A stretch of 64,000 nucleotides of DNA from Patescibacteria group bacterium (GTDB lineage: Bacteria; Patescibacteriota; Patescibacteriia; UBA9934; GWF2-40-263): the NCBI GenBank assembly GCA_041661745.1, contig JBAZTR010000004.1, positions 76,999 to 140,998 on the forward strand, read 5' to 3'. Below the pieces are notes generated by a model that did not search any database, was not told where the DNA came from, and saw only the letters and a list, made by a program, of their open reading frames with translations. The stretch's first letter is position 1. The number at the start of each line of letters is the position of its first letter. Shown here in pieces: positions 1,319 to 64,000 of this stretch. The translations under genes were made by a program, and so were the position numbers.

Positions 1319-1741
1319 ATGGCCAAGAAACTCGTTACACAAGTCAAACTCCAAATCATGGGCGGCGCCGCCACCCCAGCCCCGCCGGTCGGCCCAGCCT
1401 TGGGTCAGCATGGCCTGAACATTCAGGACTTCGTGGGCAAATTCAATGCCGCAACCCAAGATCGTCGCGGTGAAATCGTTCCGGTCGTCATCAATATCTA
1501 CGAAGACCGTTCCTTCACCTTTATCATGAAGATTGCCCCATCTTCGGAGCTCATCAAAAAAGCTTTAAACTTAAAGAGTGGTTCGGGCAAACCGTTACAA
1601 GAAAAAGTCGGGACATTAACCAGAGATCAGTTGCGCCAAATCGCTGAAAAGAAAATGCCTGACCTTAACACCACCGATGTCGAAGCGGCCATGAAAATCA
1701 TCGCTGGCACCGCCAGACAGATGGGCGTGGAAGTTAAATAA
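1319..1741 (+). CDS. rplK: 50S ribosomal protein L11
   Basis: MAKK...[27 protein letters not shown] is the hallmark L11 N-terminal domain; 140 aa. Confidence 0.95.
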
Positions 1742-1754
1742 CTAAATCTTAAGG

Positions 1755-1836
1755 AGGGAACGAAAGAGCAAATATTTACGAATATACGAATTAGAAAAAA
1801 TTCGTATATTAGTACGGATTCGTAATTTCGTCCCCC
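1755..1836. repeat. cargo-less (MITE-like) copy of the inverted-repeat element that carries the GxxExxY gene at 34958..35430
   Basis: The left half gggaacgaaagagcaaatatttacgaatatacgaatt matches the reverse complement of the repeat at 35391..35430. The right half aattcgtatattagtacggattcgtaatttcgtcccc matches the reverse complement of the repeat at 34958..35000. The two ends are joined by a 6-bp spacer and together form a near-perfect dyad. Confidence 0.6.
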
Positions 1837-1875
1837 CAGTGGGAGCCCGCAAGGCGTTACCACCACAACAAACAT

Positions 1876-2559
1876 ATGCACAGCAAACGTTATCAGGAGG
1901 CCCAAAAATTAGTTGATTCCAAAAAAGTTTACACTATCGAAGAGGCGATAAAACTTCTCAAAAGTTTACCGGCTACCAAGTTCGACGCCGCTGTTGAGTT
2001 CCATGCCAAATTAGGCATTGACCCAACCAAAGGCGACCAGCTGGTTCGCGGAACAATCGTTCTGCCACACGGTACTGGTAAAACCAAAAAGGTTATTGCC
2101 TTCGTTGAACCGGAAAAAGAAGCCGAGGCCAAAGCCGCCGGAGCCGATATTATCGGTAACGAGGAAGTTTCCGCCACAATCTTGAAAACTTCGGTCATTG
2201 AATTCGATGTGGCTATTGCCACCCCGGGCATGATGCCAAAGCTTTCCAAGCTGGCTAAAATCCTCGGTCCAAAAGGCTTAATGCCTAACCCTAAGACCGA
2301 TACGGTTGGTACCAACATAACAAAAATGATTCAGGAACAAAAAGCCGGTAAAGTCAGTTTCAAAAACGATGACACCGCCAATTTGCACCAAATCATTGGT
2401 CGCTTCTCCTTCGACGAAGCGAAGCTAAAGGAAAACTTAACCGCTTTAATCGAAGCTGTTAAAAAGGTAAAACCAGCCGCGGCCAAGGGTATTTATATCG
2501 AAAACGCCGTTATCTGCACCACTATGAGTCCAAGTATTCATGTGGAGATTCCTGTTTAA
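1876..2559 (+). CDS. rplA: 50S ribosomal protein L1
   Basis: GTGKTKKVIAFVE...FDVAIATPGMMPKLSKLAKILGPKGLMPNPKTDTVG is typical of L1; follows rplK. Confidence 0.95.
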   Translation: MHSKRYQEAQKLVDSKKVYTIEEAIKLLKSLPATKFDAAVEFHAKLGIDPTKGDQLVRGTIVLPHGTGKTKKVIAFVEPEKEAEAKAAGADIIGNEEVSATILKTSVIEFDVAIATPGMMPKLSKLAKILGPKGLMPNPKTDTVGTNITKMIQEQKAGKVSFKNDDTANLHQIIGRFSFDEAKLKENLTALIEAVKKVKPAAAKGIYIENAVICTTMSPSIHVEIPV

Positions 2560-30449: not shown

Positions 30450-33400
30450 CTACAATTTCACATTGTTACTACCAACCAAGGCTTTAATTTCCGACAAAAG
30501 TTCGTTGGTGGGATCAACATAATAATCAGTATCCATAACCCGTTGAGCCGGACCAGCACTGACAATAAAACGAACACGCCTTGAACCGCGCGAAGCTGTT
30601 AAAAGTTCACGCAGTTGCGCCACGATTTCCGGATTTGGTTTGCCAAGAAAAGTGATTTCTAAAAAATTACGGGGCAAAAGGGGTTTAAGGGGTGCAGGGG
30701 GTAAAAGGGATGGATTATCCTTGGAAGCCGTGACCTCGCCCGGGACCCACAAATTATCTTGCAACATGGCCGCGACATCACCGGCGTGCGCTGTGTCGAC
30801 AAAAATAAAGCTGTTGGCCAATAACTTCGCCTCTTCCCCTTCGCGTCGTGAAACCTTTGCCGAAACTAAAACCAATTTATCTTCGGCCAACATTTTTCCG
30901 AACTGATTATAGGCCGAAGGAAAAACAATCACTTCGGCTTTTCCGTTTTTATCGTCAAGGCCGACAAAAGCCATGTTGTCGCCTTTTTTAGTGACAATGG
31001 TTTTAACCGAGGTTACCAAACCACCAACTTTCACAAAAGAATTTTCCGGCTGGCTTTGGAGTTGGTTTAACGGCAGCAAATACTGTCCGACTTTCTTTTC
31101 GATGTCATCGAAAGGATGGGCACTAATATAAAGACCGAGCAATTCTTTTTCCCAAGCCAAAAGTTCATTTTTCTCCGCTGGCGGGGTTGGTCGAAATTTT
31201 AATTTCTCCGTGGCCAGGGCCGGTGACAAATCAAATAAAGAACTTTGATTTTGTGCCTGTTTTTCTTTGGCCTCTTTATTGAAATGAAGAATTTGCTCGA
31301 TGTTTTCCAACAAACATTTGCGTTCGCCAAAGCTATCAAGGGCGCCGGCTTTGATTAAGGCCTCCAACGCCTTTTTATTAAAAGCGCGATGATGTACACG
31401 GGTGGCAAAATCCGCCAAGTCTTTGAATGGTCCATTTGCTTCGCGTTCGTTGAAAATTGCGTCAACGGCTTCTGCCCCAAGGTTTTTAATCACCACCAAA
31501 CCAAAACGAATGGTGTTGTCGTCAATGTAGGTAAAGGTCGGGCGTGATTCGTTAAGATCCGGCGGCAAAACGGCAATGCCCATACGCTGGCATTCCTTAA
31601 CCGCGGCGGAAATGGTTTCCAAATCAGCCGATTCCGCGGTCATTAAGGCCGACATATATTCGGCCGGATAATTAGCTTTAAGATACGAAGTTTGATAAGC
31701 AACCGTACCGTAACTGGCCGCATGGGCTTTGTTAAAACCGTAAGCCGCGAATGGCTCGATCAATTTCCACAATTCGTCGGACTTTGATTTAGACAAACCG
31801 TGTTTTTGAAAACCGTCCAATAATTTTTCTTTTTGTTTGGCCATTTCCTCGGGAATTTTTTTACCCATGGCTTTGCGCAATTTGTCGGCTTCGAGCCATG
31901 AATAGCCACCAAGTTTAATGGAAATCAACATGACGTCGTCCTGATAAACGATAACGCCGTACGAAGCATCCAAAATTTCTTCCAAACGCGGATCAAGATA
32001 TTTTATTAGTGAAGCGTCGTACTTGCGGCGAATGTATTCGGGGATTGATTCAATCGGGCCCGGGCGATACAAGGCCACCATAACCATGATGTCTTCGATA
32101 CGCGTCGGTTTCAGTTCCATTAAATATTTGGTCATGCCATCGCCGTTCAACTGAAAGGTACCCATGGTATTGCCATTGGCCAAAAGTTCAAAGGTTTTAG
32201 GATCATCAACGGGAATTTTGTCGATATTAATATCAACTCCTTTAACTTTACGAATAATTCTAACAGCGTCTCCAAGAATCGACAGGTTCCGAATGCCTAG
32301 GAAGTCCATTTTCAAAAGACCGGCCGCTTCAACGGCATGCATTTCGTATTGTGTAATGGTTTTACCTTCGCGGGTATCAATTTGCAGTGGTGTAAAATCA
32401 GTCAGCGGGGTTGGCGAAAAAACCACCCCGGCGGCGTGAATGGAAACGTGGCGAGCACAACCTTCGATTTGCTGGGCCAAGTTGATAAGGCGGCGCACGT
32501 CTGGTTCGGTATCGTAGCGTTTTTTTAAATCAACATCCTCATCCAAAGCGCGTTTTAAGGTCATGGGAAAACCTTGGCTGCCCATGGGAACCATTTTGGA
32601 AACACTGTCGACAAAAGAATACTCGTGACCTAAAGCTCGACCAACATCACGAATACTGCCGCGGGCCAACATAGTTCCAAAAGTACAAATCTGGGCCACT
32701 TTATCCGCCCCGTATTTGTTGGTAACGTAGGCAATCATTTCGTCGCGACGGTTGTCGGCAAAGTCGCCGTCAACATCAGGTGCCGAAGGACGTTCAGGAT
32801 TTAAAAAACGCTCGAACGGTAATTTATATTTAATGGGATTCACTGTGGAAATGCCAATGGAAAAACTAACCAGCGAACCAGCCGCTGAACCGCGAGTAGC
32901 CGTCATAATACCGTGCGCTCTGGCCCACTCAATGTAGTCGGAAACAATCAAAAAGTACGGGGCGAAACCTTTCATTTCAATAACCGAAAGTTCATACTCA
33001 ATACGCTTTTTCATTTCCTCCGTCACCTCATCAACCTTGTTAGGCAGTTCGTTGAAGGCGCGCTGGCGCAGATATTCCAAGTGGGTTAAACCATCGGGCA
33101 CTTCAAAGTGAGCAAAATTCCATTTACCTAAATCGAATTGCACATCACAACGATCGGCGATTTTTCGAGTATTCTCAATCGCTTCAGGCAAATCTTTAAA
33201 ACGATTAATCATGTACTCGGCTTCAACGAGCGAAGCATCGTAATCGTAGGTTTGGGTGCGATCAAATTCCTCTAAAGTTCGACCGTCTTTAACACACTGT
33301 AAAATTTTCCAAGCTTCGTTGTCCTGGGGCTTTAGGTAAAAAACATTTTTAGTGGCAACAATCGGTACGCCCATTTCTTTTCCAAGTTCAGCTAAAACTG

Positions 33401-33986
33401 TATTAGTCATTTCTTGCTCGGGAATTTCCGGACGATCAACCAGCTCTAAGAAAAAATTATTCTGGCCAAAAATTTGGACGTATTCCTCAATCAATTTTTT
33501 GGCAGTCTCACGGTTGTCGTTAACAATAGCTTGATCAATATCACTAAACCGCCCGCCGGATAAAACAATCAAGCCATGGTCCTTACCCTGGCAAATTTCT
33601 TTTATTAATTCTTTATCAAGCCGCGGCTTGTAATAAAAACCTTCAAGAAAGCCGCGGGTGGAAAGTTGAATAAGATTCTTGTAGCCGGCCATGTTCTCGC
33701 ACAAAAAAACCAAACGATTGGGCTTAGCATCCATTTTGCCACGCTTTTGTAAACGGCCGTTGGGCGCTAAGTAAGCGTCCATGCCGATGATCAGTTTAAT
33801 CTCCTCATCCTTACACTTTTGGTAAAAATCAATTATTCCGTACATGACCCCATTGTCGGTTAAAGCAAAGGTGTCCATTTTACGCTCTTTCATAGCCTTA
33901 ATCAGAGCCTTGGTTTTGGGCAAGGCCTCAAGAAGCGAATAATGGCTGTGGGTATGAAGATGAACGAAAGGGGATTTGTCAGGCAT
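30450..33986 (-). CDS. dnaE: DNA polymerase III alpha subunit
   Basis: PHP domain (FVHLHTHSHYSLLEA), polymerase core and OB-fold; 1178 aa. Confidence 0.9.
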   Translation of the reverse strand: MPDKSPFVHLHTHSHYSLLEALPKTKALIKAMKERKMDTFALTDNGVMYGIIDFYQKCKDEEIKLIIGMDAYLAPNGRLQKRGKMDAKPNRLVFLCENMAGYKNLIQLSTRGFLEGFYYKPRLDKELIKEICQGKDHGLIVLSGGRFSDIDQAIVNDNRETAKKLIEEYVQIFGQNNFFLELVDRPEIPEQEMTNTVLAELGKEMGVPIVATKNVFYLKPQDNEAWKILQCVKDGRTLEEFDRTQTYDYDASLVEAEYMINRFKDLPEAIENTRKIADRCDVQFDLGKWNFAHFEVPDGLTHLEYLRQRAFNELPNKVDEVTEEMKKRIEYELSVIEMKGFAPYFLIVSDYIEWARAHGIMTATRGSAAGSLVSFSIGISTVNPIKYKLPFERFLNPERPSAPDVDGDFADNRRDEMIAYVTNKYGADKVAQICTFGTMLARGSIRDVGRALGHEYSFVDSVSKMVPMGSQGFPMTLKRALDEDVDLKKRYDTEPDVRRLINLAQQIEGCARHVSIHAAGVVFSPTPLTDFTPLQIDTREGKTITQYEMHAVEAAGLLKMDFLGIRNLSILGDAVRIIRKVKGVDINIDKIPVDDPKTFELLANGNTMGTFQLNGDGMTKYLMELKPTRIEDIMVMVALYRPGPIESIPEYIRRKYDASLIKYLDPRLEEILDASYGVIVYQDDVMLISIKLGGYSWLEADKLRKAMGKKIPEEMAKQKEKLLDGFQKHGLSKSKSDELWKLIEPFAAYGFNKAHAASYGTVAYQTSYLKANYPAEYMSALMTAESADLETISAAVKECQRMGIAVLPPDLNESRPTFTYIDDNTIRFGLVVIKNLGAEAVDAIFNEREANGPFKDLADFATRVHHRAFNKKALEALIKAGALDSFGERKCLLENIEQILHFNKEAKEKQAQNQSSLFDLSPALATEKLKFRPTPPAEKNELLAWEKELLGLYISAHPFDDIEKKVGQYLLPLNQLQSQPENSFVKVGGLVTSVKTIVTKKGDNMAFVGLDDKNGKAEVIVFPSAYNQFGKMLAEDKLVLVSAKVSRREGEEAKLLANSFIFVDTAHAGDVAAMLQDNLWVPGEVTASKDNPSLLPPAPLKPLLPRNFLEITFLGKPNPEIVAQLRELLTASRGSRRVRFIVSAGPAQRVMDTDYYVDPTNELLSEIKALVGSNNVKL

Positions 33987-33989
33987 AAT

Positions 33990-34023
33990 CTTGTAGGGGC
34001 AAAAGATCTTTTGCCCCTACAAG
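33990..34023. terminator. perfect 15-bp palindrome between the 34097..34636 gene and dnaE
   Basis: cttgtaggggcaaaag atc ttttgcccctacaag. Confidence 0.5.
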
Positions 34024-34096
34024 ATTAACAAAAACCCCCTCCTCCCGCCAGAGGCGGATAAGGAAGGAGCTCTCGAAACACTTTTTGTTCAATCTA

Positions 34097-34650: not shown

Positions 34651-34953
34651 TTAATCATCAAAATCGGCAATTTTTTTACTTTTCTTTTCCTGTTTTTTAT
34701 CAATGGCGTATTCCACCACCTTACGAATACTATCAACTAGAAACGATAAGCCCATGGTGGCTTTTTCGAACTTGCCGCGGATGCCAGTAATTGCTTCTTC
34801 AATTTTGGCCATTTTTTCGCGAGCTTCGGCCATGGTGTCATTTACATTTTTCAAAATCATGGCAATTTGCCAAATGAGCCAGCACATAAAGGCCGTGACC
34901 CACAAAGCACAGAAAGCCAAGACAATGAAAAGGATGTCTTGAGATTGAAACAT
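34651..34953 (-). CDS. small membrane protein (DUF948-like: N-terminal TM plus coiled-coil)
   Basis: ILFIVLAFCALWVTAFMCWLIWQIAMIL followed by a charged helical region. Confidence 0.4.
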   Translation of the reverse strand: MFQSQDILFIVLAFCALWVTAFMCWLIWQIAMILKNVNDTMAEAREKMAKIEEAITGIRGKFEKATMGLSFLVDSIRKVVEYAIDKKQEKKSKKIADFDD

Positions 34954-34957
34954 AGAG

Positions 34958-35430
34958 AGGGGACGAAATTACGAATTCGTACGAATATACGAATTTTTTA
35001 CTTTTTAATATTTACGATTCTTTTTTGTTTTACTCCTTCACTGGTAAAATTGAGAAGAATTCCTAGTTGCAAATCACCTGAAACTAAATAGTCTAAAACT
35101 TGTTTTATATGTGCCCCGGAAAAATATTTTTCACATTTTAGTTCGACAATAATTTTGTCCTCAACAAGAAAGTCGAAAAAGTTCTGCCCAACAATCTTTC
35201 CGTTATACTTTACTGGAATGTAAAATTGTTCTTTAAATTTTTTCCCTCGCTTTTTCAACTCCTCAGCTAAAGCACGTTGGTAAGTTCTTTCCCGATGTCC
35301 AGAACCCAATTGGTTGAATACTTCGAAAGCGGCTCCTACGATTTCAAAACTTTCATCCCTGTACAAAAGATCAACCCTGGTCACCACCATACAAAATTCG
35401 TATATTCGTAAATATTCGCTCTTTCGCCCC
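34958..35430. mobile_element. small cassette: GxxExxY (PD-(D/E)XK-like) gene flanked by imperfect terminal inverted repeats of about 40 bp
   Basis: Left repeat 34958-35000 ggggacgaaattacgaattcgtacgaatatacgaatttttt. The reverse complement of the right repeat 35391-35430 is ggggcgaaagagcgaatatttacgaatatacgaatttt. They share the outer GGGG(a)CGAAA and the inner ACGAATATACGAATTTT. A cargo-less copy of both ends sits at 1755..1836. Confidence 0.6.
34998..35390 (-). CDS. GxxExxY family protein
   Basis: IVGAAFEVFNQLGSGHRERTYQRALAEELKKRG...FFDFLVEDKIIVELK matches the GxxExxY protein signature. Confidence 0.7.
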   Translation of the reverse strand: MVVTRVDLLYRDESFEIVGAAFEVFNQLGSGHRERTYQRALAEELKKRGKKFKEQFYIPVKYNGKIVGQNFFDFLVEDKIIVELKCEKYFSGAHIKQVLDYLVSGDLQLGILLNFTSEGVKQKRIVNIKK

Positions 35431-35441
35431 CTCCCTAATCT

Positions 35442-37892
35442 TTACCTAATTGTACCAGAAAAGTCGTCCTTAATCACTGTGACTAACTTTTCCATGTCTT
35501 TTTCAACTTCATCGGAGGACAAAGTACGGTCGGCCGCCCGGAAGGTTAGGTGAACAGCCACTGATTTTTTGTCCGGATCAATCCCCTTCCCCTGATAAAC
35601 ATCAAACAACTCAACGGTGTGTAAAAGTTTTGAGGTTTTGATAAAAATCTTTTCCAAGGTTGAATAAGCGGTGGTCGTAGAAACAACAAAAGCTAAATCT
35701 CTTTTTACATCAGGAAATTCTGGAATCTTTTCGTACTTATTTTGTTTAGGCACCAAGGTGGATAAAAGCGAAAGATTAATCTCGGCCACAACCGCTCGCC
35801 AATCCAAACCAATAGCCCGACCAATCGCCGGTTCGGCTTCGGTCAAGCAGCCGATAAATTCGCCACGGGTGTAAAGCTCGGCACGACGCGACGGGTGTGT
35901 CCAAACCGGCCCCTTGGTCATAGGTCGCACCTCAACAGCAAAACCAAACTCTTCCAAAAGCCCGACAATCATACGCCGACCTTCGACAAAAGGTTTGCCG
36001 TCACCCTTCGAAGAAAAAGCCAAACCCAACCAATGATCTTGGCGCGGCAAGGCTTTACTGCTGCCATCATCCTCGCCAGGTAATTCGGCCACATAGTGAC
36101 GACCAATTTCGAACAAACAAACCGGATCAGTAAACTTTTGATTTGTTTTAATGTTTTCTAAAAGATTCGTGGCCAAAGTCCTGGCCAAATACGGTCGTTC
36201 TTTAGAAATAGGGTTGGCTAGCTCAAGATAATCAGATAATTTCTCGCCCATCTTTTCCAAAATCTGCGGGGCCACAAAGCTGTAGTTGTAAGTTTCCGTG
36301 GCCGCAAAACGATCGGCTAAAATATGACGGACTCTTCGTTCTAACTCACGCCCCGAGTCTTTGGTTGGCGGGGTGATTTCAACACACGGCAAAGTTAATG
36401 GGATTTTTTCATAACCATAAACCCGGGCGATTTCCTCTAACAGATCTTCGGCAATGGAAATATCTTTGGTGGCCCGCCAGGTTGGAATAGTTACATTCAA
36501 ATTTTCGCCCTTCTTCTTTACCTCAAAACCAAGCCGTTCAAGAATTCCAATCATCTCATCCGTGGGAATATTTAAACCAAGTTTAGCCGAAACCATGGCT
36601 AATGGCAGAACAATCGGCCCTTGATTCAAAGAAAAATTCTTAACGTCAACCACTTTGGAAACAACACGCGCCCCGGGAATTAATTCCAAAAGAAGTCCAA
36701 CAGTGCGACGAATGGCAATTTCTGACAAATTAGGATCCAAACTTTTTTCGTAACGCAACGAAGCTTCGGAACGCAAACCCAACCGCTGTGAAGTTTTGCG
36801 AATACCTGCGGAATTAAAATTGGCTGATTCAAGAAAAACTGTCGTGGTATTATCATCAATCTCGCTATTTTGCCCACCCATAATGCCGGCCAAAGTTACT
36901 GCTTTCCGACCATCACAAATTAAAAGATCCGAGGAAACCAATTTTCTTTTTTCATCATCTAGAGTTAAAAACTCCTCACCAGCTTCGGCCGTCTTAACAA
37001 CAATTTCAACCGTCTTTTCTTTACCTGAAGCATTTTCCAATTTGTTCGCGTCAAAAGCATGCAGCGATTGTCCGACTTCGAGCATGACATAGTTGGTAGC
37101 ATCAACAACATTGTTGATTGGCCGCATACCAACAGCCGAAAGCCGCTTTTGCAACCAATCGGGAGACGGGGCAATTTTTATTCCATCAATGACCACGCCA
37201 ATATAGCGAGAACACAACTCCGGCTCGGCCACCTTAATCGACAAATCAAAACCCTTCCCTTCTTTAATTGCCGGCGGATTAATTGGTTTAAATTTTGTAT
37301 TCAATAGCGCGGCGACCTCATGAGCAAAACCGTGATGACTAAACAAATCGGGTCGATTGGTTAACGACTTATTATCAACTTCAATAATTGCGTCATCAAG
37401 ACCAAGAGCTTCGGACAAAGCCGTGCCAGGTTCAACCTCAAGATAACTTAAATCAACAATTTCGCGCTCGCTTTCGCGGCCAGTAGCCAAACCGATTTCA
37501 TTGGCCGAACAAATCATACCAAAAGAATCAACCCCGCGCAGTTTGGTTGGTTGAATTTCCACTGGTTCACCTTCACCATGCCATTTAACTTTGGCTCCAA
37601 CCATTGCTACCGCAACTTTCTGGCCATCGGATAAATTGCTGCCGCCACAAACGATCTGTACGGGCACAAAATTTTGTGCCCCTACGTCAACCTCACACAC
37701 CCGCAATTTATCGGCGTTAGGATGAGGGTTAACACTCAAAATCTTTCCGACAACAATTCTTTCAAGCGGCCCGGCCTGCCCCTCAATTCCTTCGACTTCG
37801 ACCGTGCAATCACTAATACGCTCGGCTAAATCCTTGTCGTTGACATCGCCCAAATCAACAAAATCTTTTAACCATTTTTTTGACAATAACAT
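35442..37892 (-). CDS. pheT: phenylalanine--tRNA ligase beta subunit
   Basis: 816 aa with N-terminal tRNA-binding, B3/B4, B5 and anticodon-binding-like domains; immediately downstream of pheS. Confidence 0.9.
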   Translation of the reverse strand: MLLSKKWLKDFVDLGDVNDKDLAERISDCTVEVEGIEGQAGPLERIVVGKILSVNPHPNADKLRVCEVDVGAQNFVPVQIVCGGSNLSDGQKVAVAMVGAKVKWHGEGEPVEIQPTKLRGVDSFGMICSANEIGLATGRESEREIVDLSYLEVEPGTALSEALGLDDAIIEVDNKSLTNRPDLFSHHGFAHEVAALLNTKFKPINPPAIKEGKGFDLSIKVAEPELCSRYIGVVIDGIKIAPSPDWLQKRLSAVGMRPINNVVDATNYVMLEVGQSLHAFDANKLENASGKEKTVEIVVKTAEAGEEFLTLDDEKRKLVSSDLLICDGRKAVTLAGIMGGQNSEIDDNTTTVFLESANFNSAGIRKTSQRLGLRSEASLRYEKSLDPNLSEIAIRRTVGLLLELIPGARVVSKVVDVKNFSLNQGPIVLPLAMVSAKLGLNIPTDEMIGILERLGFEVKKKGENLNVTIPTWRATKDISIAEDLLEEIARVYGYEKIPLTLPCVEITPPTKDSGRELERRVRHILADRFAATETYNYSFVAPQILEKMGEKLSDYLELANPISKERPYLARTLATNLLENIKTNQKFTDPVCLFEIGRHYVAELPGEDDGSSKALPRQDHWLGLAFSSKGDGKPFVEGRRMIVGLLEEFGFAVEVRPMTKGPVWTHPSRRAELYTRGEFIGCLTEAEPAIGRAIGLDWRAVVAEINLSLLSTLVPKQNKYEKIPEFPDVKRDLAFVVSTTTAYSTLEKIFIKTSKLLHTVELFDVYQGKGIDPDKKSVAVHLTFRAADRTLSSDEVEKDMEKLVTVIKDDFSGTIR

Positions 37893-37893
37893 A

Positions 37894-38913
37894 TTAGAAT
37901 TGTTTTAAAAATCTAACATCGCCGCTCTGCATAAGTCGAGAATCATCGATGTTGTATTTCAACATTGCTAAACGCGACAAACCGAAACCAAAGGCAAAAC
38001 CCTGAAACTTATTTGGATCAACTCCACCTTCATGCAAAACATTAGGGTGAACCAAACCGGCTCCAAGTACCTCAAGCCAACCAGATTTTTTACAAACTTT
38101 GCAACCTTGGCCGTGACAGAGAAAACACGTGACTTCACCACGCACCCCCGGTTCGACAAAGGGATAAAACTTAGGCCGCAAACGCATTTTAACTTCATCG
38201 CCAAATAAATGCTTGGCGACTTTTTCCAACACCGCTTTCATGTGACTAAAATTTATATCCTTATCAACCATTAAACCTTCCAACTGATAAAAAGTGTGTT
38301 CATGTCGAGCGTCGGTAGCTTCGTTTCTAAAACATCGGCCGGGTACAACCACCCGGAGCGGCGCACCGTATTTGCGCATGGCTCGAACTTGCACTGGCGA
38401 AGTTTGCGTGCGCATAACCTGATCGTCGTGACCTTTGATATACAAACTATCCTGCATGTCACGAGCCGGATGTGTGGATGGGACATTGAGGGCAGTAAAA
38501 TTAAAATAATCGCTCTCAAGCTCTGGACCATCAAGTACCATGAAACCCATGGAATAAAACAGATCTTCAAGCTCTTCCTGAATTTGCGTCACAGGATGAA
38601 GATGACCTTGTTCCTTAACAGGAAAGGCCGGCTCAGTTACATCAATTTGTTCACCCTCCACAACGCTAGAAACCTGGCGAGCTTGTTCGGCCGCGGCCAA
38701 ACCCGCCTCAATCGCTTTTTTTGTTTCATTGGCGATTTGACCAATTTCTTTTCGCTCTTCACCGGCCAGCTCGGCCAACTCTTTCATCAAAAGCGCCAAG
38801 TGACCTTTGCGACCAAGAAATTTGGTTTTAACTTCCTCCAAATCCACACCGTCCTTAACATCACCAAGTGCGGCGTTGAAAGTTTTTTTAAGTTGTTCAA
38901 ACTTATCTTTCAT
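37894..38913 (-). CDS. pheS: phenylalanine--tRNA ligase alpha subunit
   Basis: FNFTALNVPSTHPARDMQDSLYI and class II motifs 2 and 3 (GFAFGFGLSRLAML). Confidence 0.9.
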   Translation of the reverse strand: MKDKFEQLKKTFNAALGDVKDGVDLEEVKTKFLGRKGHLALLMKELAELAGEERKEIGQIANETKKAIEAGLAAAEQARQVSSVVEGEQIDVTEPAFPVKEQGHLHPVTQIQEELEDLFYSMGFMVLDGPELESDYFNFTALNVPSTHPARDMQDSLYIKGHDDQVMRTQTSPVQVRAMRKYGAPLRVVVPGRCFRNEATDARHEHTFYQLEGLMVDKDINFSHMKAVLEKVAKHLFGDEVKMRLRPKFYPFVEPGVRGEVTCFLCHGQGCKVCKKSGWLEVLGAGLVHPNVLHEGGVDPNKFQGFAFGFGLSRLAMLKYNIDDSRLMQSGDVRFLKQF

Positions 38914-38921
38914 ATTTTTAT

Positions 38922-40187
38922 TTAACCAACAAATTTAAAGATATCACGGAAGGTGACTACGGCCACCAGAAGCAATAACAAGGCAAAACCAAGATTGTGA
39001 GCTAAAGCTTCAAACCTTTCATCAAGCGCTCGCCCGCGAATTTTTTCAATAATCAAGAAGAATATTCGCCCGCCATCAAGAGCCGGAAAAGGCAAAATGT
39101 TTACCACAGCCAAGTTAATGGAAAGAATAGCCGCGAATTGCAACAAATAAAGAATGCCCATGGCTGCGGCTTGGCCGGTCATAACAGCAATACCGACTGG
39201 TCCAGCCAAATCAACAGCCACGCTTTGATGAACAACTAAATTCCAAAGCAAATTTCCAAAAGCTTTCAAAACTTCCCAGGTGAAAACAAAAGTTGCTTCA
39301 ACCCCCTTAATGGCGGCTAAATACCAGGGATACGACACTAGCGCTGTCTTGACTAAACCAACTCCCACACCTTTTTCCCCATAAGTCGGTAAATCTTCGG
39401 CCGTAACGGAAAAAGTTAACGCCTCATCACCACGCTTTAATAAAAATTTTACTTCTTCGCCCTCGCGAGTTTTAATATAAGTCCGGGCGGCTTCGGATGA
39501 AGTAAAAATTTGATCATCAATGGAAAGAATTTCGTCGCTAGTTTCCATACCAGCTCGTTCAGCCGGACTCCCCGCAATAACACTCATTATTTGAATTTTT
39601 TCATTAGCTAATTTAACCGAGGTCGGCACTGATTCGTCGACAATGCTCGGCAAACCAACAGCAAAACCGATTGAAAGAAGAACCGCGGCAAACGCGAAGT
39701 TCATGGCCACGCCGGCTATTAAAACAATAAAGCGTTGCCAAATCGGCCGGCTGGAAAAACTACGCGGATCGTTCTTAAGTTCACCGGATTCGCCGTGGAT
39801 TTTTACGAAACCGCCTAAAGGAATCCAATTGATAGAATAAATTGTTTGATCTTCGTGTTGATCAGAACCACCCCAAATAAATTTCCAACGATTGATCGGA
39901 CGAACTTCAACTGTATCGCGGATAACATCGGTAACTTTCGTTTGAACCAACTCAATCCCTCCAGTCCCCACAGTCTCTTCAGTCCCCACAACAACCTCCT
40001 CAGTTTCTTCAACCAAACGACGCTCTTCCCCGCGAACTCGCATAATTCCAAAAGCCCGCGGCGGAAAACCAAAACCAAATTCATCAATTTTCATGCCGAT
40101 TTTTTTGGCCGTAACAAAATGGCCCAATTCATGAAAAAAGACCAAAAGCGATAGAACGGCTAAAAACAAAATTACAGTTAGTAACAT
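38922..40187 (-). CDS. rseP: RIP metalloprotease RseP (site-2 protease)
   Basis: HELGHF (HExxH) in the first TM; PDZ domain; LDGG motif (ALDGGRIFF) near the C-terminus. Confidence 0.85.
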   Translation of the reverse strand: MLLTVILFLAVLSLLVFFHELGHFVTAKKIGMKIDEFGFGFPPRAFGIMRVRGEERRLVEETEEVVVGTEETVGTGGIELVQTKVTDVIRDTVEVRPINRWKFIWGGSDQHEDQTIYSINWIPLGGFVKIHGESGELKNDPRSFSSRPIWQRFIVLIAGVAMNFAFAAVLLSIGFAVGLPSIVDESVPTSVKLANEKIQIMSVIAGSPAERAGMETSDEILSIDDQIFTSSEAARTYIKTREGEEVKFLLKRGDEALTFSVTAEDLPTYGEKGVGVGLVKTALVSYPWYLAAIKGVEATFVFTWEVLKAFGNLLWNLVVHQSVAVDLAGPVGIAVMTGQAAAMGILYLLQFAAILSINLAVVNILPFPALDGGRIFFLIIEKIRGRALDERFEALAHNLGFALLLLLVAVVTFRDIFKFVG

Positions 40188-56891: not shown

Positions 56892-58550
56892 TTAGAATCG
56901 CAACATTCCATTTAAAGAATTAATTGCGTGGACTTCTTCAATGGTCAAAGACGGCTGTTTGGCAACAAGACGCTCCTTGGCAATTACTTCAACCGGCTGA
57001 CCGGCGATTAAAGCGGCCTGACTCATGGCCAAGTACAACTGATTTGTCGGCGAAGAGCGCCAGGCTTTGACCGCGGAAATTTTTTGACCAACTCCCTGCT
57101 CTTCCAAAAGATTAATCTTGTCGTGAATTTTTATAACCGCTTCATCTGGGTCCGAAGACAAGCGACGAAACTCATCAAGCGAAAGATTTTTTAATTCATC
57201 AAGCGGACCGGACAATCGCCGCGACGGCGCGACAATATCAACCATTTGCGGTCGACCGTTATTTGATTGCGGCGGCCTTGAAGCCGATGAAACCACCGGC
57301 GTCACTGGTTTTGGCGGGGCGACTTTTGGCTTGGCCGCTTTAGCTTTTTCAGCGGCAATTTTTTCAGCTTCAACTTTGGCCGCGACTTTGGCTTCGTTTG
57401 CCACTACTTTTCCTTTTTCTATTCTTAGCTTATCAACAATTTGTTGTTCACCGACTATTTTTTCTAATTCTTCCATTACCCGAACCAATGCCGCGCCACT
57501 AATTGCTAAGCCACCTTGATCAATCGGCCGCTCTAAAAGATCACGTGTTTCAAAAGCATCACGAACATCTTTTAAACGAGCCTCCACGGCCCCGACAAAC
57601 TTTTTTTGTACAACCTCATCAAATTTCAAACCGACTTTTTCTTCAAGCTGTTTTACTATTTGTTCAGAGGAAAGCGGTGTACTGACCACCGGGGTTGGTT
57701 TTTCAGTTTTAAGTTCTTCCATTACAAACGGGGCCGCGATTTTCTTTACCTCTCCTTGGCTTTGTACCCCTCTCCCCGACCCTCCCCCTGCTAAGAAAGC
57801 AGATGGGGGAGGGAGTGGTGCCGGACGAACCGGCGGCGCGACTGGAGTAACCGCCGGCACCGGCCGGACGGCTGGCGGTTTGATATCAACCATTTGTCTC
57901 GGCGATACGGGTTTGGCTGGCACGACCACCGGACGGGTTTTAATTAAACCACCGGCTTTGGTTAAAAATCTATCCAATAAATTTTTAGCATCAACCTCGG
58001 TCATGTTTAATCCGCCCACCTTTTCCGAACGAACGAAGGCAGCAAGAGTTTCCTCTTTTGTTCGCGTGCCGTCCATTAATGAATTCAGAATAAAAACCAA
58101 ACGGCTTTGTTCCAATTTATCAGACAAAGCCACACCTAATTCCGCCAAAACTTTTTCCACTGGTTCGGCCGAATCTTTTTCAACAGGATTTGAAGCAGAA
58201 AGACGTGGCACGTTTTTGAAAGCCGCGGGATCGCCACCCCATTCTTTTATTCTTTCTTCAACACTGTTTCCAAAAAAATAAGAAATTGGCAACAAACGGT
58301 TTCCAGCTAAATCAACGGCAATTTTATTCGCAACTTCCCAATCAACGTCGAGTTCAGACAAAATCATCGTCGGGAGAATTTCCAATAAGTCTTCTTCTAA
58401 AGCCACCTGCTCTACCAATCTTAACAAAGTCATTGTTTTTTCTTTAGGCAAACCAAACTTGGCCCCGGTTTTTTCTGCCCACTCTGGCCCGGTGGCGTCA
58501 ACAAGAAAATCCTGGATATTTTCGGGAAGTTCAGAAAAACTTTTCATCAC
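56892..58550 (-). CDS. hypothetical protein with a Pro-rich low-complexity core
   Basis: 552 aa with a PVxP/AxP repeat region in the middle; located inside the T4SS-like cluster. Confidence 0.4.
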   Translation of the reverse strand: MMKSFSELPENIQDFLVDATGPEWAEKTGAKFGLPKEKTMTLLRLVEQVALEEDLLEILPTMILSELDVDWEVANKIAVDLAGNRLLPISYFFGNSVEERIKEWGGDPAAFKNVPRLSASNPVEKDSAEPVEKVLAELGVALSDKLEQSRLVFILNSLMDGTRTKEETLAAFVRSEKVGGLNMTEVDAKNLLDRFLTKAGGLIKTRPVVVPAKPVSPRQMVDIKPPAVRPVPAVTPVAPPVRPAPLPPPSAFLAGGGSGRGVQSQGEVKKIAAPFVMEELKTEKPTPVVSTPLSSEQIVKQLEEKVGLKFDEVVQKKFVGAVEARLKDVRDAFETRDLLERPIDQGGLAISGAALVRVMEELEKIVGEQQIVDKLRIEKGKVVANEAKVAAKVEAEKIAAEKAKAAKPKVAPPKPVTPVVSSASRPPQSNNGRPQMVDIVAPSRRLSGPLDELKNLSLDEFRRLSSDPDEAVIKIHDKINLLEEQGVGQKISAVKAWRSSPTNQLYLAMSQAALIAGQPVEVIAKERLVAKQPSLTIEEVHAINSLNGMLRF

Positions 58551-61316: not shown

Positions 61317-61385
61317 AGTTGAGAACAGTATAACATATTTTATCTTGATTAAGCAGTGGAAAACTTGGCCCTATCGGATTACCTC

Positions 61386-61837
61386 TCCCCCCTACCCCTC
61401 TCCTTCGTAAGGAGAGGGGCTTTTGGATCTATTTAATAAAAACGTTTTGATCGTTTCTAAAACTACTTCTATGTGATAATTAATATCGAAATTACTAAAT
61501 CTTAAAACCACTAGACCAAGAGATTCCAAAAAGCTCTGACGATTAATATCGTTTTCTTTAATTTTCGGATCTTGATGAATTTTACCGTCAATTTCTATAA
61601 CCAGACGCAGTTTTGGACAATAAAAATCGACAAAATACTGCCCAATGTTTACCTGACGACGAAATTTCTGATCGGCAATTTGTTTCTTTTTTAGAAACAT
61701 CCAGAGACGATCTTCATAAACAGTCGCCTCCCGACGTAATTTGCGACGAGTTTCTTTAGTTTCCGGCCGATTGAATAGCTTAGTTATAAAACTGGACCTC
61801 CCCTCTCCTTTACGAAGGAGAGGGGTTAGGGGGTAAG
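61386..61837. mobile_element. DUF559 endonuclease-like gene bracketed by 33-bp inverted repeats, each containing a CCCCTCTCC/GGAGAGGGG hairpin
   Basis: Left repeat cccccctacccctctccttcgtaaggagagggg (61386-61418). The reverse complement of the right repeat (61804-61837) is ccccctaacccctctccttcgtaaaggagagggg. The stop-to-stop open frame runs exactly between the outer edges of the two repeats. Confidence 0.55.
61392..61700 (-). CDS. DUF559 (Vsr-like endonuclease-fold) protein, probably N-terminally truncated or degenerate
   Basis: FRRQVNIGQYFVDFYCPKLRLVIEIDGKIHQD...DINRQSFLESLGLVVLRFSNFDI matches DUF559. The conserved upstream segment ...RRKLRREATVYEDRLW is in frame but has no ATG before 61700. 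Confidence 0.55.
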   Translation of the reverse strand: MFLKKKQIADQKFRRQVNIGQYFVDFYCPKLRLVIEIDGKIHQDPKIKENDINRQSFLESLGLVVLRFSNFDINYHIEVVLETIKTFLLNRSKSPSPYEGEG

Positions 61838-61883
61838 GTTAGATAAAAATCCCGACGCGGAAAGAACCGCCTCGGGAATGAAT

Positions 61884-63716
61884 TTAGTCGCAATCGGCCA
61901 CGACCATGGCCTCGCAGCCATCGGCCGTGCCGGCCGTCTTGTGGTACACCGCGGGCTCGAGGTCGCAGGTCGTCCCATCGGGCGAGGTGAACTCGACTGT
62001 GTGCGTGCCTTGGAGTTCATCGTCGACCTCGTTGTAGGAGGTCGACTCACAGCTCCAGTCGTAGGAGCCGTACGAATTGGCTTCGACGCTGTAACGAACA
62101 GTCTGGCCCTCGGGCACCACGAACGAGAAGGTGATCTCGTCGTTCCCAGTGGCCGTGAAGGTCGTGCCAGCCCAGCTTTCGAAGTCGTCTTCGCTCGCGG
62201 CGTACTCGTAGGTGGCCGTGAGGCTCTGCGAGTTGTAGCCGAAGTCGGTTTCCCAGGTCACGGTCATGATACCGTAGCCGGTATCGGCGTCGGTGTCCGT
62301 GTCAGTATCCGAATCTGTGTCCGTGTCGGAGTCCGTGTCCGAATCGGAATCGACATCAGTATCCGTATCAGCGTCACCGGTGTCGTCTTCCAGATCCGGG
62401 AGATCGGTGTTGTTGCCGCCGTGGTTGCCGGATTCGGACAGGTCGAACCCGCCGCCACAAGCGGTCAGGTTCTCGGGAGTGAGGCACCACAGGCCAGCCG
62501 AACAGTCGCCCACTTCTTCCTGTACCTCGGCCACGGCGCCGTCGGGCACGGGGATGATCTCGCGCTGGTAGTAACCGGCCAGGAGGTAGGTGTTCCAGTC
62601 GAGAACTGGAGCGGCCACTCCACCCGTGATCACGTACACGTCCGAGTGCGAGTCTTCTTTGAGAATCGCCCCGTCGCGGAAGCGGGCGTGGCCGGACCGC
62701 TCGGGCCAGGCCGTGTAGATGTTGGTGTCTGGCGGCGGATTGGTTTCGGAGTAGCTGAGACCCCACGAGGTCATGACCCCTTCCGAGGCCATGTCTTCGA
62801 CCATCTGGCGGTAGCGGTTCGGGTCATCGGAAGCCCCGACCACCAGCCAGTGGAAACCGAACTCGTCGGTGTAGGCGTCGACAAGCCCTTCGTCCACGAC
62901 CTCCTCCCCCTCTCCATAACACTTCAACTCCTCGTTGGAGATAAGGGTGAGATCGGCGAAGTTGTAGCCGTAGCTCCAGAAGATGTCTTCGTTCCGAAGC
63001 CAGCGCCGCGCGCCGTCTTCGATGAGGTAGACGTCCGGGCTCGAGGGCACCTTGACGAGCGTGCCATCCGGATGCCAGAGCGGCACCGAGAGGTCCGAAG
63101 CGTACCAGTGACCGCTTGCTTCGTCGCAGACAAAGCCGTCGGTCGAGTCGTTTTCGTATTCCTCCTCGATCGTGGTGTCGGCCGCACGCATGTAGGTGTC
63201 GATGGAGGTGCCGTACTGTGCCTGGAGCGAAGCATCGCCCTCGTGACGGCCGTAGTGCAGATGGTCGCCGGTGCAGAGACCGGTGCAACCCTCGTAACCG
63301 AGAAGTGTTCCGGGGGCCACTTCGTCACCGTCGGCAACGAAGATCCGGTCGAAGTGCGCCAACACCAGGTAGGTGCCGTCGCCGAGGTCAAGATTCACGT
63401 GGTAGCCGAAGTTGGTCGTGGCACTTTCCATGTGCACGCGGACCACGCCGGCTTCGGGGGCGTAGATCTCCTCGGCCTCGTAGTTGCTGGTGTCGAAGTC
63501 GAGGTCGTGGCGAGTGGAATTGCCGGTGTGGCTGTAGCTGCCACCAGCCCCTTGCACACACAGGTGCGTTTCGCTCCGGGCGAAAGGCAGCTGCACCGAA
63601 GTGCCGCCACCCTGCTCGCCCGACTGGTCGGCCGTGTCCATGAAAGTGGTGTTGAACGGCTGAAGACCGCAGGCCACCAGGAAAAAGAACACAAGAGCCA
63701 GGATAATGGTTCGCAT
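61884..63716 (-). CDS. lipoprotein M23 (LytM-type) peptidase with tandem C-terminal targeting repeats and a DTDS low-complexity segment; encoded on a GC-rich island
   Basis: Lipobox LVAC after MRTIILALVFFF; M23 His motifs (HLCVQ..., TGDHLHYG); (DTDS)n; two C-terminal repeats of the G.LVK.PSSPDVY.IEDG.RRWL type. Codon third positions are overwhelmingly G/C, unlike the rest of the window. Confidence 0.7.
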   Translation of the reverse strand: MRTIILALVFFFLVACGLQPFNTTFMDTADQSGEQGGGTSVQLPFARSETHLCVQGAGGSYSHTGNSTRHDLDFDTSNYEAEEIYAPEAGVVRVHMESATTNFGYHVNLDLGDGTYLVLAHFDRIFVADGDEVAPGTLLGYEGCTGLCTGDHLHYGRHEGDASLQAQYGTSIDTYMRAADTTIEEEYENDSTDGFVCDEASGHWYASDLSVPLWHPDGTLVKVPSSPDVYLIEDGARRWLRNEDIFWSYGYNFADLTLISNEELKCYGEGEEVVDEGLVDAYTDEFGFHWLVVGASDDPNRYRQMVEDMASEGVMTSWGLSYSETNPPPDTNIYTAWPERSGHARFRDGAILKEDSHSDVYVITGGVAAPVLDWNTYLLAGYYQREIIPVPDGAVAEVQEEVGDCSAGLWCLTPENLTACGGGFDLSESGNHGGNNTDLPDLEDDTGDADTDTDVDSDSDTDSDTDTDSDTDTDTDADTGYGIMTVTWETDFGYNSQSLTATYEYAASEDDFESWAGTTFTATGNDEITFSFVVPEGQTVRYSVEANSYGSYDWSCESTSYNEVDDELQGTHTVEFTSPDGTTCDLEPAVYHKTAGTADGCEAMVVADCD

Positions 63717-64000
63717 GGCGTCCTCTTTTTTTGAGTGAAGAGGCGCCACGATATTCGCAGCCGCCTCGACCAGCGCGCTAGTACTTTCGCGCCGATCGAG
63801 CGCGGCCGTTCGGCCGTATGCGCAGGTTCGATGACCGAACCAGCGGCGCTCCCCTTTGCCTTGAACTTTCAAAGTTCAGGTTTTTCCGATCGTTCGTTTA
63901 ACCAACCGGCGTTTTGCTCGACCTTTCCAGGAAGAATTATTAACTCCATTCAGCCGTACAGTTTGGATTTCAACAAAATTTCAGTCTCCGCACCGCACGG

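Follow-up and report, generated by a model that had tools for sequence, protein, structure and literature searches.

A gene-less hairpin in the rplK-rplA spacer of a Patescibacteria group bacterium and its relation to an inverted-repeat family linked to GxxExxY nuclease genes

We analysed a 64,000-nucleotide stretch of DNA from a Patescibacteria group bacterium (GenBank assembly GCA_041661745.1, contig JBAZTR010000004.1, positions 76,999 to 140,998 of the forward strand; hereafter the window, with position 1 as its first letter) and found that an 80-bp hairpin at 1756-1835, in the spacer that separates two ribosomal protein genes, rplK and rplA, is the gene-less form of a cassette sited 33 kb away, in which two inverted arms enclose a gene of the GxxExxY family. 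The explanation that we favour, with moderate confidence, is that the hairpin belongs, as a non-autonomous and gene-less copy, to a family of inverted repeats, here called TACGAAT elements, which is linked to the GxxExxY nuclease and has been spread by recombination. The gene-bearing form holds a PD-(D/E)XK nuclease gene in its loop, and the gene-less form would be the same cassette with this open reading frame (ORF) deleted.

The first-pass annotation of this DNA had described the segment as built from both terminal repeats of the GxxExxY gene, joined head to head around a 6-bp spacer into a dyad, and our results bear this out. An inverted-repeat search delimited arms of 37+37 nt that are 76% complementary around the 6-nt loop AGAAAA; the right arm aligns to the reverse complement of 34953-35000, the left flank of the GxxExxY gene, and the left arm to the reverse complement of 35390-35437, its right flank. 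Folded in context as RNA, the hairpin reached -41.5 kcal/mol (z = -5.4), which none of 200 shuffles equalled, and as DNA it reached -16.7 kcal/mol (z = -5.2). With up to two mismatches allowed, the 15-mer ACGAATATACGAATT has five matches in the 64 kb against 0.14 expected, all of them at the hairpin and the cassette; GGGGACGAAA by itself is not enriched in the window (seven matches, 7.0 expected). The loop junction of the short copy reads as the full copy minus everything between ACGAATT and AAAAAATTCG, and in both copies, read along local transcription, a C-type arm (CGAAAGAGCGAATATTTACG...) comes first and a B-type arm (CGAAATTACGAATNCGTAC...) second. The short copy had also been called inverted relative to the full copy, which is true of window coordinates and not of local transcription, along which the arm order is the same. 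Its placement in the rplK-rplA spacer stands, with SecE, NusG, L11 and L1 recognised by Pfam and a spacer of 134 nt. The sole listed ORF across the hairpin (1627-1905, minus strand, 92 aa) is antisense to rplK and rplA and has no credible coding capacity; short, non-coding and bounded by 37-nt terminal inverted repeats, the 80-bp hairpin has in these respects the form of a miniature inverted-repeat transposable element (MITE).

A single arm of the family is about 37 nt long and polar, with distinct inner and outer ends, and it carries four TTCGTA boxes spaced 8, 10 and 8 nt, arranged as two conserved blocks around a variable 5-nt spacer. Single arms are not palindromes and fold no better than shuffles (z -1.8 to +0.4); paired arms form a stem whose outer helix (18 bp) and inner helix (13 bp) are parted by a 5x5 internal loop. 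The aligned arms point to conservation of the arm sequence itself and show no sign that pairing is selected. An exact pattern built to cover all eight arms known by then (CGAAANNNCRAATNNNNNCKAATATACGAAT) matched 86 stretches of the genome collection in which it was searched, and the metagenome-assembled genomes (MAGs) concerned are labelled Uhrbacteria, Parcubacteria, Paceibacterota, Liptonbacteria, Azambacteria, Giovannonibacteria, Wildermuthbacteria, Saccharibacteria, Minisyncoccia and others; a few are labelled Gammaproteobacteria, and this label may be wrong. Up to 12 arms were found in a single MAG. At the positions left free by the pattern, arms are 0.776 identical within genomes and 0.539 between genomes, a within-genome value as high as which was reached in none of 1000 permutations, and the outer tags of the arms are genome-specific as well (GGGGA, GGTCTA, CCTCTA or TTACTA). 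One MAG has a whole 115-bp hairpin, including its loop, common to two loci with unrelated flanks (L009 and L029; loci of the collection are given L numbers). The arm family thus occurs in multiple copies at unrelated loci, two of them inside the window, and a search for full and empty copies, as the first-pass annotation had proposed, turned up both kinds in many related genomes.

GxxExxY genes were found by profile search at L015, L017, L034 (two), L042, L048, L052 and L085, and each adjoins an arm; the second L034 gene is probably a cut copy, as is another at the contig end of L041, where the N-terminus was read by eye. The gene begins at -2 to +12 nt relative to the inner end of the upstream arm and fills the loop, the next gene has its ATG 6-10 nt beyond the outer end of the second arm of the cassette, and the cassette ORF always runs in the direction of the flanking operon. 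No other gene type occurs systematically at the inner ends of arms, and every identified gene-bearing pair of arms encloses a GxxExxY gene, the L090 interval being left aside; the two wide arm pairs, in L090 (834 nt apart) and L018 (133 nt apart), are without one. We also picked three GxxExxY loci by protein similarity alone, independently of arms. A Moranbacteria MAG (L175) has a flanking inverted repeat with z 13.9, in which a TACAAA variant is changed in both arms, and a MAG labelled Bacteroidia (L174) has one of the TACGAA type with z 7.0; the third locus (L176), with neighbours unlike those of the candidate phyla radiation (CPR), has TACGAA-type boxes on both sides, and the complementarity of its flanks is not above that of shuffles (z 1.1). 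At each of these three loci, 3-5 nt separate the end of the downstream arm from the next ATG. The subtypes of the arms agree between the two forms of the element within a genome: MAG DeMMO3_36 has A-loop-B in its rplK-rplA hairpin (L011) and A-gene-B in its cassette (L042), and the window genome has C-loop-B and C-gene-B, the same subtype order. The arm pair of the rplK-rplA hairpin in L014 is flipped.

A GxxExxY cassette was also observed between rpsG and fusA, in the str operon, in two CPR classes (L048 4566-5033; L085/L052, contig JBEKBN010000005), and it represents either an ancient insertion or a repeatedly used target.

Comparison of orthologous sites revealed both gain and loss of elements, in spacers between co-directional genes. 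We fetched 80 rplA loci with the L1 protein and read their upstream regions. The hairpin abuts a leader-like helix of the L1 gene, treated below, in the window, L094 (90% L1 identity), L095, L099 and L014; in L096/L011 it lies 21 nt further upstream, between two TAAAAAA. It is absent from L097 (83% L1 identity), where the rplK stop is followed by 9 nt and the leader, and from L103, L104, L108 and others. A decayed half arm, with ACTAAT replacing ACGAAT, is left in L098, a C/G-rich hairpin of the type that flanks DUF559 genes occupies the spacer in L100, and L121 has a third, unrelated hairpin. The rplK-rplA hairpins thus stand at two different insertion points, and because relatives have here a hairpin, a decayed arm, unrelated hairpins or nothing, we regard this spacer as an insertion hot spot. 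This variability is the opposite of a palindrome conserved across taxa, which the first-pass annotation had named as the outcome that would speak for a regulatory site, and the comparison accordingly favours a repeat element.

The full copy lies between pheT and a 100-aa gene (ORF100), and its two closest GxxExxY homologues (84% and 83% identity) lie between the same two genes and keep the same flanking arms. Among the GxxExxY orthologues of this site, synonymous divergence (dS) is saturated and the ratio of nonsynonymous to synonymous divergence (dN/dS) is 0.03-0.12, indicating purifying selection and thus a functional protein; their arms, compared by eye, are about 85-100% identical over the conserved blocks. 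Judged by this divergence, the full copy is old at the pheT site and its arms are constrained. The cassette occupies the pheT-ORF100 spacer in the window, L003, L005, L017 and L042. In L185 (85% ORF100 identity) all that is left in the 27-nt spacer is the outer half of an arm in decayed form, ATTAGTAATTAGC. A DUF559 cassette with a frameshift stands in L183, with a solo B arm behind it, and L184 and L186 have no arm there. L185 and the empty rplK-rplA locus L097 come from the same metagenome, and cassette and hairpin appear to be present together and missing together, an observation that concerns one probable genome, with L097 and L185 assigned to the same organism by sample and divergence. 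At neither site did we find the two forms as a pair: a hairpin-only allele at pheT-ORF100 and a GxxExxY-filled allele at rplK-rplA were not among the states seen, which were empty, vestigial or DUF559-occupied.

The cargo protein is a clear member of its family, scoring 117 bits against curated cut-offs of 35 and 22, with no Pfam or NCBIfam match other than TIGR04256 and PF13366. The G31/E34/Y37 motif and the D73/E83/K85 triad are invariant or nearly so in 36 homologues, and the triad, D73...E83-x-K85, is intact. A structure model with a mean confidence score (pLDDT) of 92 gave Foldseek matches to Cas4, lambda exonuclease, the tRNA-splicing endonuclease EndA and Hjc, a predicted likeness at the level of the generic PD-(D/E)XK fold only, and a sequence search of the PDB with the family profile returned no meaningful match. 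PF13366 is recorded with unknown function (PMC3424549). In viral contigs we found only four distant homologues (30% identity), without flanking inverted repeats.

A sister system in the same genomes shows directly that small nuclease cassettes enter operons and degenerate where they stand into gene-less inverted repeats. In the window, a DUF559 (Vsr-like) gene (61392-61799, minus strand, Pfam E 2.9e-32) lies in a cassette at 61381-61839, enclosed by a 30-nt inverted repeat (87%) of which each end is itself a C-rich/G-rich mini-hairpin (CCCCTCTCCTT..AAGGAGAGGGG). A full DUF559 cassette stands at the pheS-pheT junction in L005-L007, an internally deleted, gene-less one with the same ends stands there in L003 (7240-7480), and the window has none, its two genes meeting without a spacer (37892-37894).

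Several side observations were made around these elements. Exactly at the outer end of the DUF559 cassette of the window, the G+C content changes from about 0.44 to about 0.62, and from there on (61840-64000) long ORFs overlap on both strands; this segment is either horizontally acquired or an assembly join at a repeat. A related contig, k141_1363778 (128 kb), would by coordinate arithmetic end near 51 kb of the window. A perfect 25+25-nt overlapping palindrome, TAATCTTGTAGGGGCAAAAGATCTTTTGCCCCTACAAGATTA, lies at 33986-34027, directly upstream of a 1178-aa gene (30450-33986, minus strand) that matches the DNA polymerase III alpha gene at the corresponding place in L001, and its sequence is unrelated to the TACGAAT arms. 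Two MAGs have arms joined to further modules. In MAG JBAZVB01 (L008 5941-5980, L024, L086, L090) the arm is often followed by an array of 4-6 heptads (T)AGGACG, which may be a second direct-repeat module. In MAG AUK254, JAGHBK01 (L013, L018, L043, L059, L065, L079, L082), the arm is fused to a common module (AAATAAGTGAGGCAACTTTCTCAAAGGA...), giving composite repeats, and the contigs are only about 2.6-8 kb long, which may reflect assembly breaks at high-copy repeats. More generally, the arm repeats may be one reason for the fragmentation of some CPR MAGs.

Table 1. Positions of the rplK-rplA hairpin, the GxxExxY cassette and adjoining features in the window
Feature	Position	Strand	Remarks
rplK (L11), 5' of the hairpin	1319-1741	+	Pfam Ribosomal_L11_N and Ribosomal_L11
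C-type upstream arm of the hairpin, GGGAACGAAAGAGCAAATATTTACGAATATACGAATT	1756-1792	+	Inverted-repeat arm, aligned to the reverse complement of 35390-35437; nhmmer arm profile E = 2.7e-7
Loop AGAAAA	1793-1798	+	Spot that holds the GxxExxY ORF in the full copy, by comparison with the full-copy ends
B-type downstream arm of the hairpin, AATTCGTATATTAGTACGGATTCGTAATTTCGTCCCC	1799-1835	+	Outer end faces rplA; nhmmer E = 1.2e-11
Small helix GUGG-GA-[stem-loop]-UUA-CCAC(CAC)	1839-1866	+	Ends 10 nt before the rplA ATG; separate from the repeat
rplA (L1), 3' of the hairpin	1876-2559	+	Pfam Ribosomal_L1, E = 2.5e-55
ORF100, 100-aa gene served by the downstream arm	34651-34953	-	Marker for the orthologous site in relatives
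B-type downstream arm of the cassette	34953-35000	-	TTTCG end, then 10 nt (TCCCCTCTCT), then the ATG of the next gene
GxxExxY gene, 130 aa	34998-35390	-	TIGR04256 and PF13366, both E = 5.6e-34; PD-(D/E)XK fold
C-type upstream arm of the cassette	35390-35437	-	Starts directly after the pheT stop; inner end 5 nt before the GxxExxY ATG

We propose that the arms serve the GxxExxY nuclease as its cognate sites on nucleic acid, and that the nuclease would maintain or spread the elements by break-induced recombination or gene conversion, in a homing-like manner and not by cut-and-paste transposition. Nuclease-driven recombination of this kind would explain both the absence of target duplications and the likeness of arms within a genome. 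In the rplK-rplA co-transcript, the interrupted stem would separate the two cistrons, with a role in processing or stability, and the L1 leader would stay free. The gene-proximal arm would supply, or at least tolerate, a 5'-proximal expression signal of the downstream gene, and this may be the reason why insertions survive only at a fixed distance from the start codon. Most arms in other genomes are solo or paired units detached from GxxExxY, about half of all arms being solo, and because they are detached in this way and stand 6-13 nt before start codons, the arm probably also carries or tolerates a role related to expression.

Several observations weigh against this explanation. About 90% of the arms do not stand beside a GxxExxY gene, those that do amounting to roughly one tenth, and MAG JBAZVB01 has 10 arms and no GxxExxY gene among its sampled loci. 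Only two arm loci are present in the 64-kb window, and the activity of the element in this genome would therefore be low at most. We know of no transposase activity for GxxExxY proteins or for PD-(D/E)XK proteins of such size. No target-site duplication was seen at the window hairpin, the full copy or L009/L029, so that this check, suggested by the first-pass annotation, came out negative; the sole candidate, TAAAAAA/TAAAAAA in L011/L096, is of low complexity. The earlier description of a cargo-less, MITE-like copy is accordingly right in that the hairpin is a cargo-less copy, with the same arm types in the same order, and it does not hold for a MITE in the strict sense, there being neither a target-site duplication nor a known transposase. 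The 5-nt spacers of paired arms are simply mismatched, with no compensatory change between them, and selection on an RNA stem is thus not demonstrated. Finally, the arm blocks are nearly identical across CPR classes whose associated proteins are only about 50-60% identical, and this likeness would be accounted for equally well by a selfish nuclease and by a conserved host factor, such as RNA polymerase, the ribosome or a regulator.

This last point leads to the main rival explanation, in which the arm is primarily a host expression signal, be it a leaderless or near-leaderless promoter, the operator of a CPR regulator or an enhancer of translation independent of the Shine-Dalgarno sequence. 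A hairpin would on this view consist of two back-to-back signals of this kind, GxxExxY would be a regulator that binds them or a gene that happens to lie between them, and the rplK-rplA copy would be an internal start or regulatory site of rplA. We consider this possible and, on balance, unlikely. What speaks for it includes the position of the arms. When arms were oriented to read ...ATTCGTAATTTCG and ORFs of at least 80 aa were counted, 39 of 101 arms were followed, 6-13 nt past the outer end, by an ATG (mode 7 nt), compared with a flat background of roughly 6% at random positions; a few of these 39 are orthologous sites. The genes 3' of arms are diverse housekeeping genes, such as those for L1, EF-G, L27, L17, S16, aminoacyl-tRNA synthetases, ClpP and DnaJ, and Pfam annotation of 60 arm-adjacent genes revealed no single regulon; in one case, the only one with a tRNA, a tRNA-Thr gene follows a degenerate arm by 13 nt (L057). 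The conservation of the arm sequence, which extends across classes, is also far beyond neutral expectation.

The terminal TA(A/T)TTT of the arm sits 9 nt before the ATG, and in the window, L094 and L014 exactly 10 nt separate TAATTT from the L1 leader that follows. At gene starts throughout the window (for example 8399, 20135-21916, 38922-40187 and 56892-58547), only a few of the 46 long ORFs have a match resembling a Shine-Dalgarno sequence, and some have TATAAT-like hexamers 8-12 nt before the ATG, which suggests that the organism may use very short leaders or leaderless mRNAs. Because of these hexamers and their similar spacing, the TAATTT of the arm could act as a -10 element. However, about 45 genes in the window are without an arm, so that the arm is not the general promoter, and an E. 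coli-type sigma-70 scan did not call any arm as an outward promoter. The one sigma-70 match overlapping an arm (TGGTCA-17-TATATT, 35378-35406, plus strand) belongs to a set of 3 matches where 2.8 are expected by chance; given the fixed distance to the start codon, a non-canonical promoter in the arm would be possible. In every hairpin and cassette, the upstream arm is directed antisense, into the gene before it, and the orthologous spacers of L097, L184 and L186 have no arms, with their genes presumably still expressed. The duplication of entire hairpins with their loops within a genome, and arm variants that are specific to genomes, as is typical of proliferating repeats, also argue against a signal of the host.

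A further explanation operates at the RNA level and takes the element as similar to an intervening sequence (IVS). The arms would pair in the polycistronic transcript and RNase III would cut the stem, so that the GxxExxY mRNA is excised or rplK and rplA are separated, with a protective 3' hairpin left upstream and a near-leaderless 5' end downstream. IVSs that contain an ORF and are bounded by inverted repeats are excised by RNase III from the 23S rRNA of Leptospira and Coxiella. The stem is indeed long and stable with a central internal loop, the next start codon lies a few nucleotides from its base, and a survey of 18 gene-less hairpins showed each of the 17 whose two neighbours were called to sit between genes of one direction and to take up nearly the whole spacer; the constant co-orientation of the cassette ORF with its operon points in the same direction. 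On the other hand, solo arms, about half of the total, form no stem and yet keep the same distance to the start codon, and in paired arms it is the sequence that is conserved, with the uncompensated spacers giving no evidence of selection for pairing. We hold RNase III cleavage to be quite improbable as the primary explanation. It is also compatible with nuclease-linked spread, as a consequence at the level of expression, and with a host signal alike.

Between the hairpin and rplA lies a separate small helix (1839-1866), which starts 3 nt 3' of the hairpin, folds independently of it and is probably the L1 autoregulatory leader. Its motif, GUGG-GA-[stem-loop]-N-CCAC, stands at a distance of 8-20 nt from the rplA ATG in nearly all of the 80 upstream regions read. 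It was counted in 27 distinct CPR-type sequences (L094-L129), with or without the hairpin, and in 24 of them, which were aligned, P1 is invariant and three P2 pairs show 13, 9 and 8 double compensatory changes; the helix has no Rfam match at E up to 10. Conservation across taxa and covariation, as expected of an L1 leader, were thus found for this helix and not for the hairpin. The first-pass annotation had suggested that the element sits where an L1 structure would be expected, but the leader-like helix is intact 3 nt downstream and has not been displaced. It is extremely improbable that the palindrome itself serves the rplKA operon as L1 autoregulatory site, as attenuator or as intrinsic terminator: a strong hairpin in a spacer where such a signal could be expected would favour it, but the distinct covarying helix persists in CPR relatives whether or not the hairpin is there, L097 lacks the hairpin, L100 and L121 have unrelated hairpins in its place, the terminator scan of 1756-1840 found no site (CCAGUGGGAG follows the stem, with no U-run), and copies of the same sequence border an unrelated gene at a distance of 33 kb. 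These three readings were rejected by the sequence comparison of relatives, as far as such a comparison reaches. Rfam searches over 1200-2000 (E up to 10) gave only spurious matches of the miRNA hairpin type.

Returning to the explanation we favour, a nuclease-linked family of repeats, we would tentatively extend it further. GxxExxY proteins could be the dedicated nucleases of an unrecognised class of hairpin repeats in CPR bacteria and possibly other phyla, a PD-(D/E)XK counterpart of the REPIN/RAYT systems discussed below, in which the arms act as expression modules at gene starts, the elements are partly domesticated in operons and the DUF559 cassettes form a parallel system. GxxExxY is annotated in many bacterial genomes, being a widespread family without an assigned function, and the physical link between the GxxExxY gene, the inverted repeat and the gene-less copies offers a lead to the function of PF13366/TIGR04256, namely that of a nuclease which may act on arms made of TTCGTA boxes. 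For genome annotation, hairpins in the ribosomal protein operons of CPR bacteria should not be taken for ribosomal protein leaders, and small nuclease genes inside the rpsG-fusA, pheST and rplKA operons should be treated as insertions and not as members of the operon.

The TACGAAT repeat family in CPR bacteria is apparently undescribed, as our search of a paper library found no earlier description of the repeat family of about 37 nt or of GxxExxY mobility, nor any of DUF559 as a selfish or homing element. It is comparable to several known systems. Bacterial MITEs, such as the Correia elements of Neisseria, ERIC and RUP, are likewise about 80-120 bp long, bounded by terminal inverted repeats, multi-copy and intergenic, and they resemble TACGAAT elements in co-transcription with neighbours, long RNA hairpins and presence/absence polymorphism at orthologous sites. 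Their sequences are unrelated, however, and TACGAAT elements have neither a detectable target-site duplication nor a known transposase partner of the insertion sequence (IS) type; the gene-bearing partner with the same arms (34953-35437) encodes instead a 130-aa protein of nuclease fold that exactly fills the loop. The term MITE is thus an analogy and not a demonstrated membership, since target-site duplications are missing and the cargo is no known transposase.

The ORF-containing IVSs of 23S rRNA, whose protein family is PF05635, also have a small ORF inside inverted repeats that form a long stem in a highly expressed transcript, and ORF-less stems exist among them; by contrast, the TACGAAT copies lie in mRNA spacers (rplK-rplA, pheT-ORF100) and encode another protein family. 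Free-standing homing endonuclease genes with PD-(D/E)XK or Vsr-like folds, for example I-Ssp6803I and I-Bth0305I, are similar in that a small nuclease gene is placed precisely between conserved genes, is co-oriented with the operon and is gained and lost among relatives, and a second nuclease family, DUF559, behaves alike in the same genomes. The difference from homing lies in the long, stable orthology at the pheT site and in the missing pair of empty and filled alleles with an intact hairpin at one site.

Researchers have described REPINs as doublets of repetitive extragenic palindromic (REP) sequences that form hairpins, and RAYTs as the REP-associated tyrosine transposases linked to them (PMC3337134). 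TACGAAT elements share with this system a single, vertically inherited gene flanked by repeats, gene-less inverted doublets that form hairpins elsewhere, and intergenic repeat variants specific to each genome. They differ in that the cargo is a PD-(D/E)XK protein of the GxxExxY family, whereas RAYTs are IS200/IS605-like Y1 (HUH) transposases, and in that their arms are direct arrays of TTCGTA boxes, whereas REPs are palindromes. TACGAAT arms stand upstream of start codons, and REPs are found mostly 3' of genes; the hosts of TACGAAT elements are mainly CPR bacteria, plus the MAG labelled Bacteroidia. REPIN/RAYT is nevertheless the closest known analogue, a PD-(D/E)XK nuclease taking the place of the tyrosine transposase.

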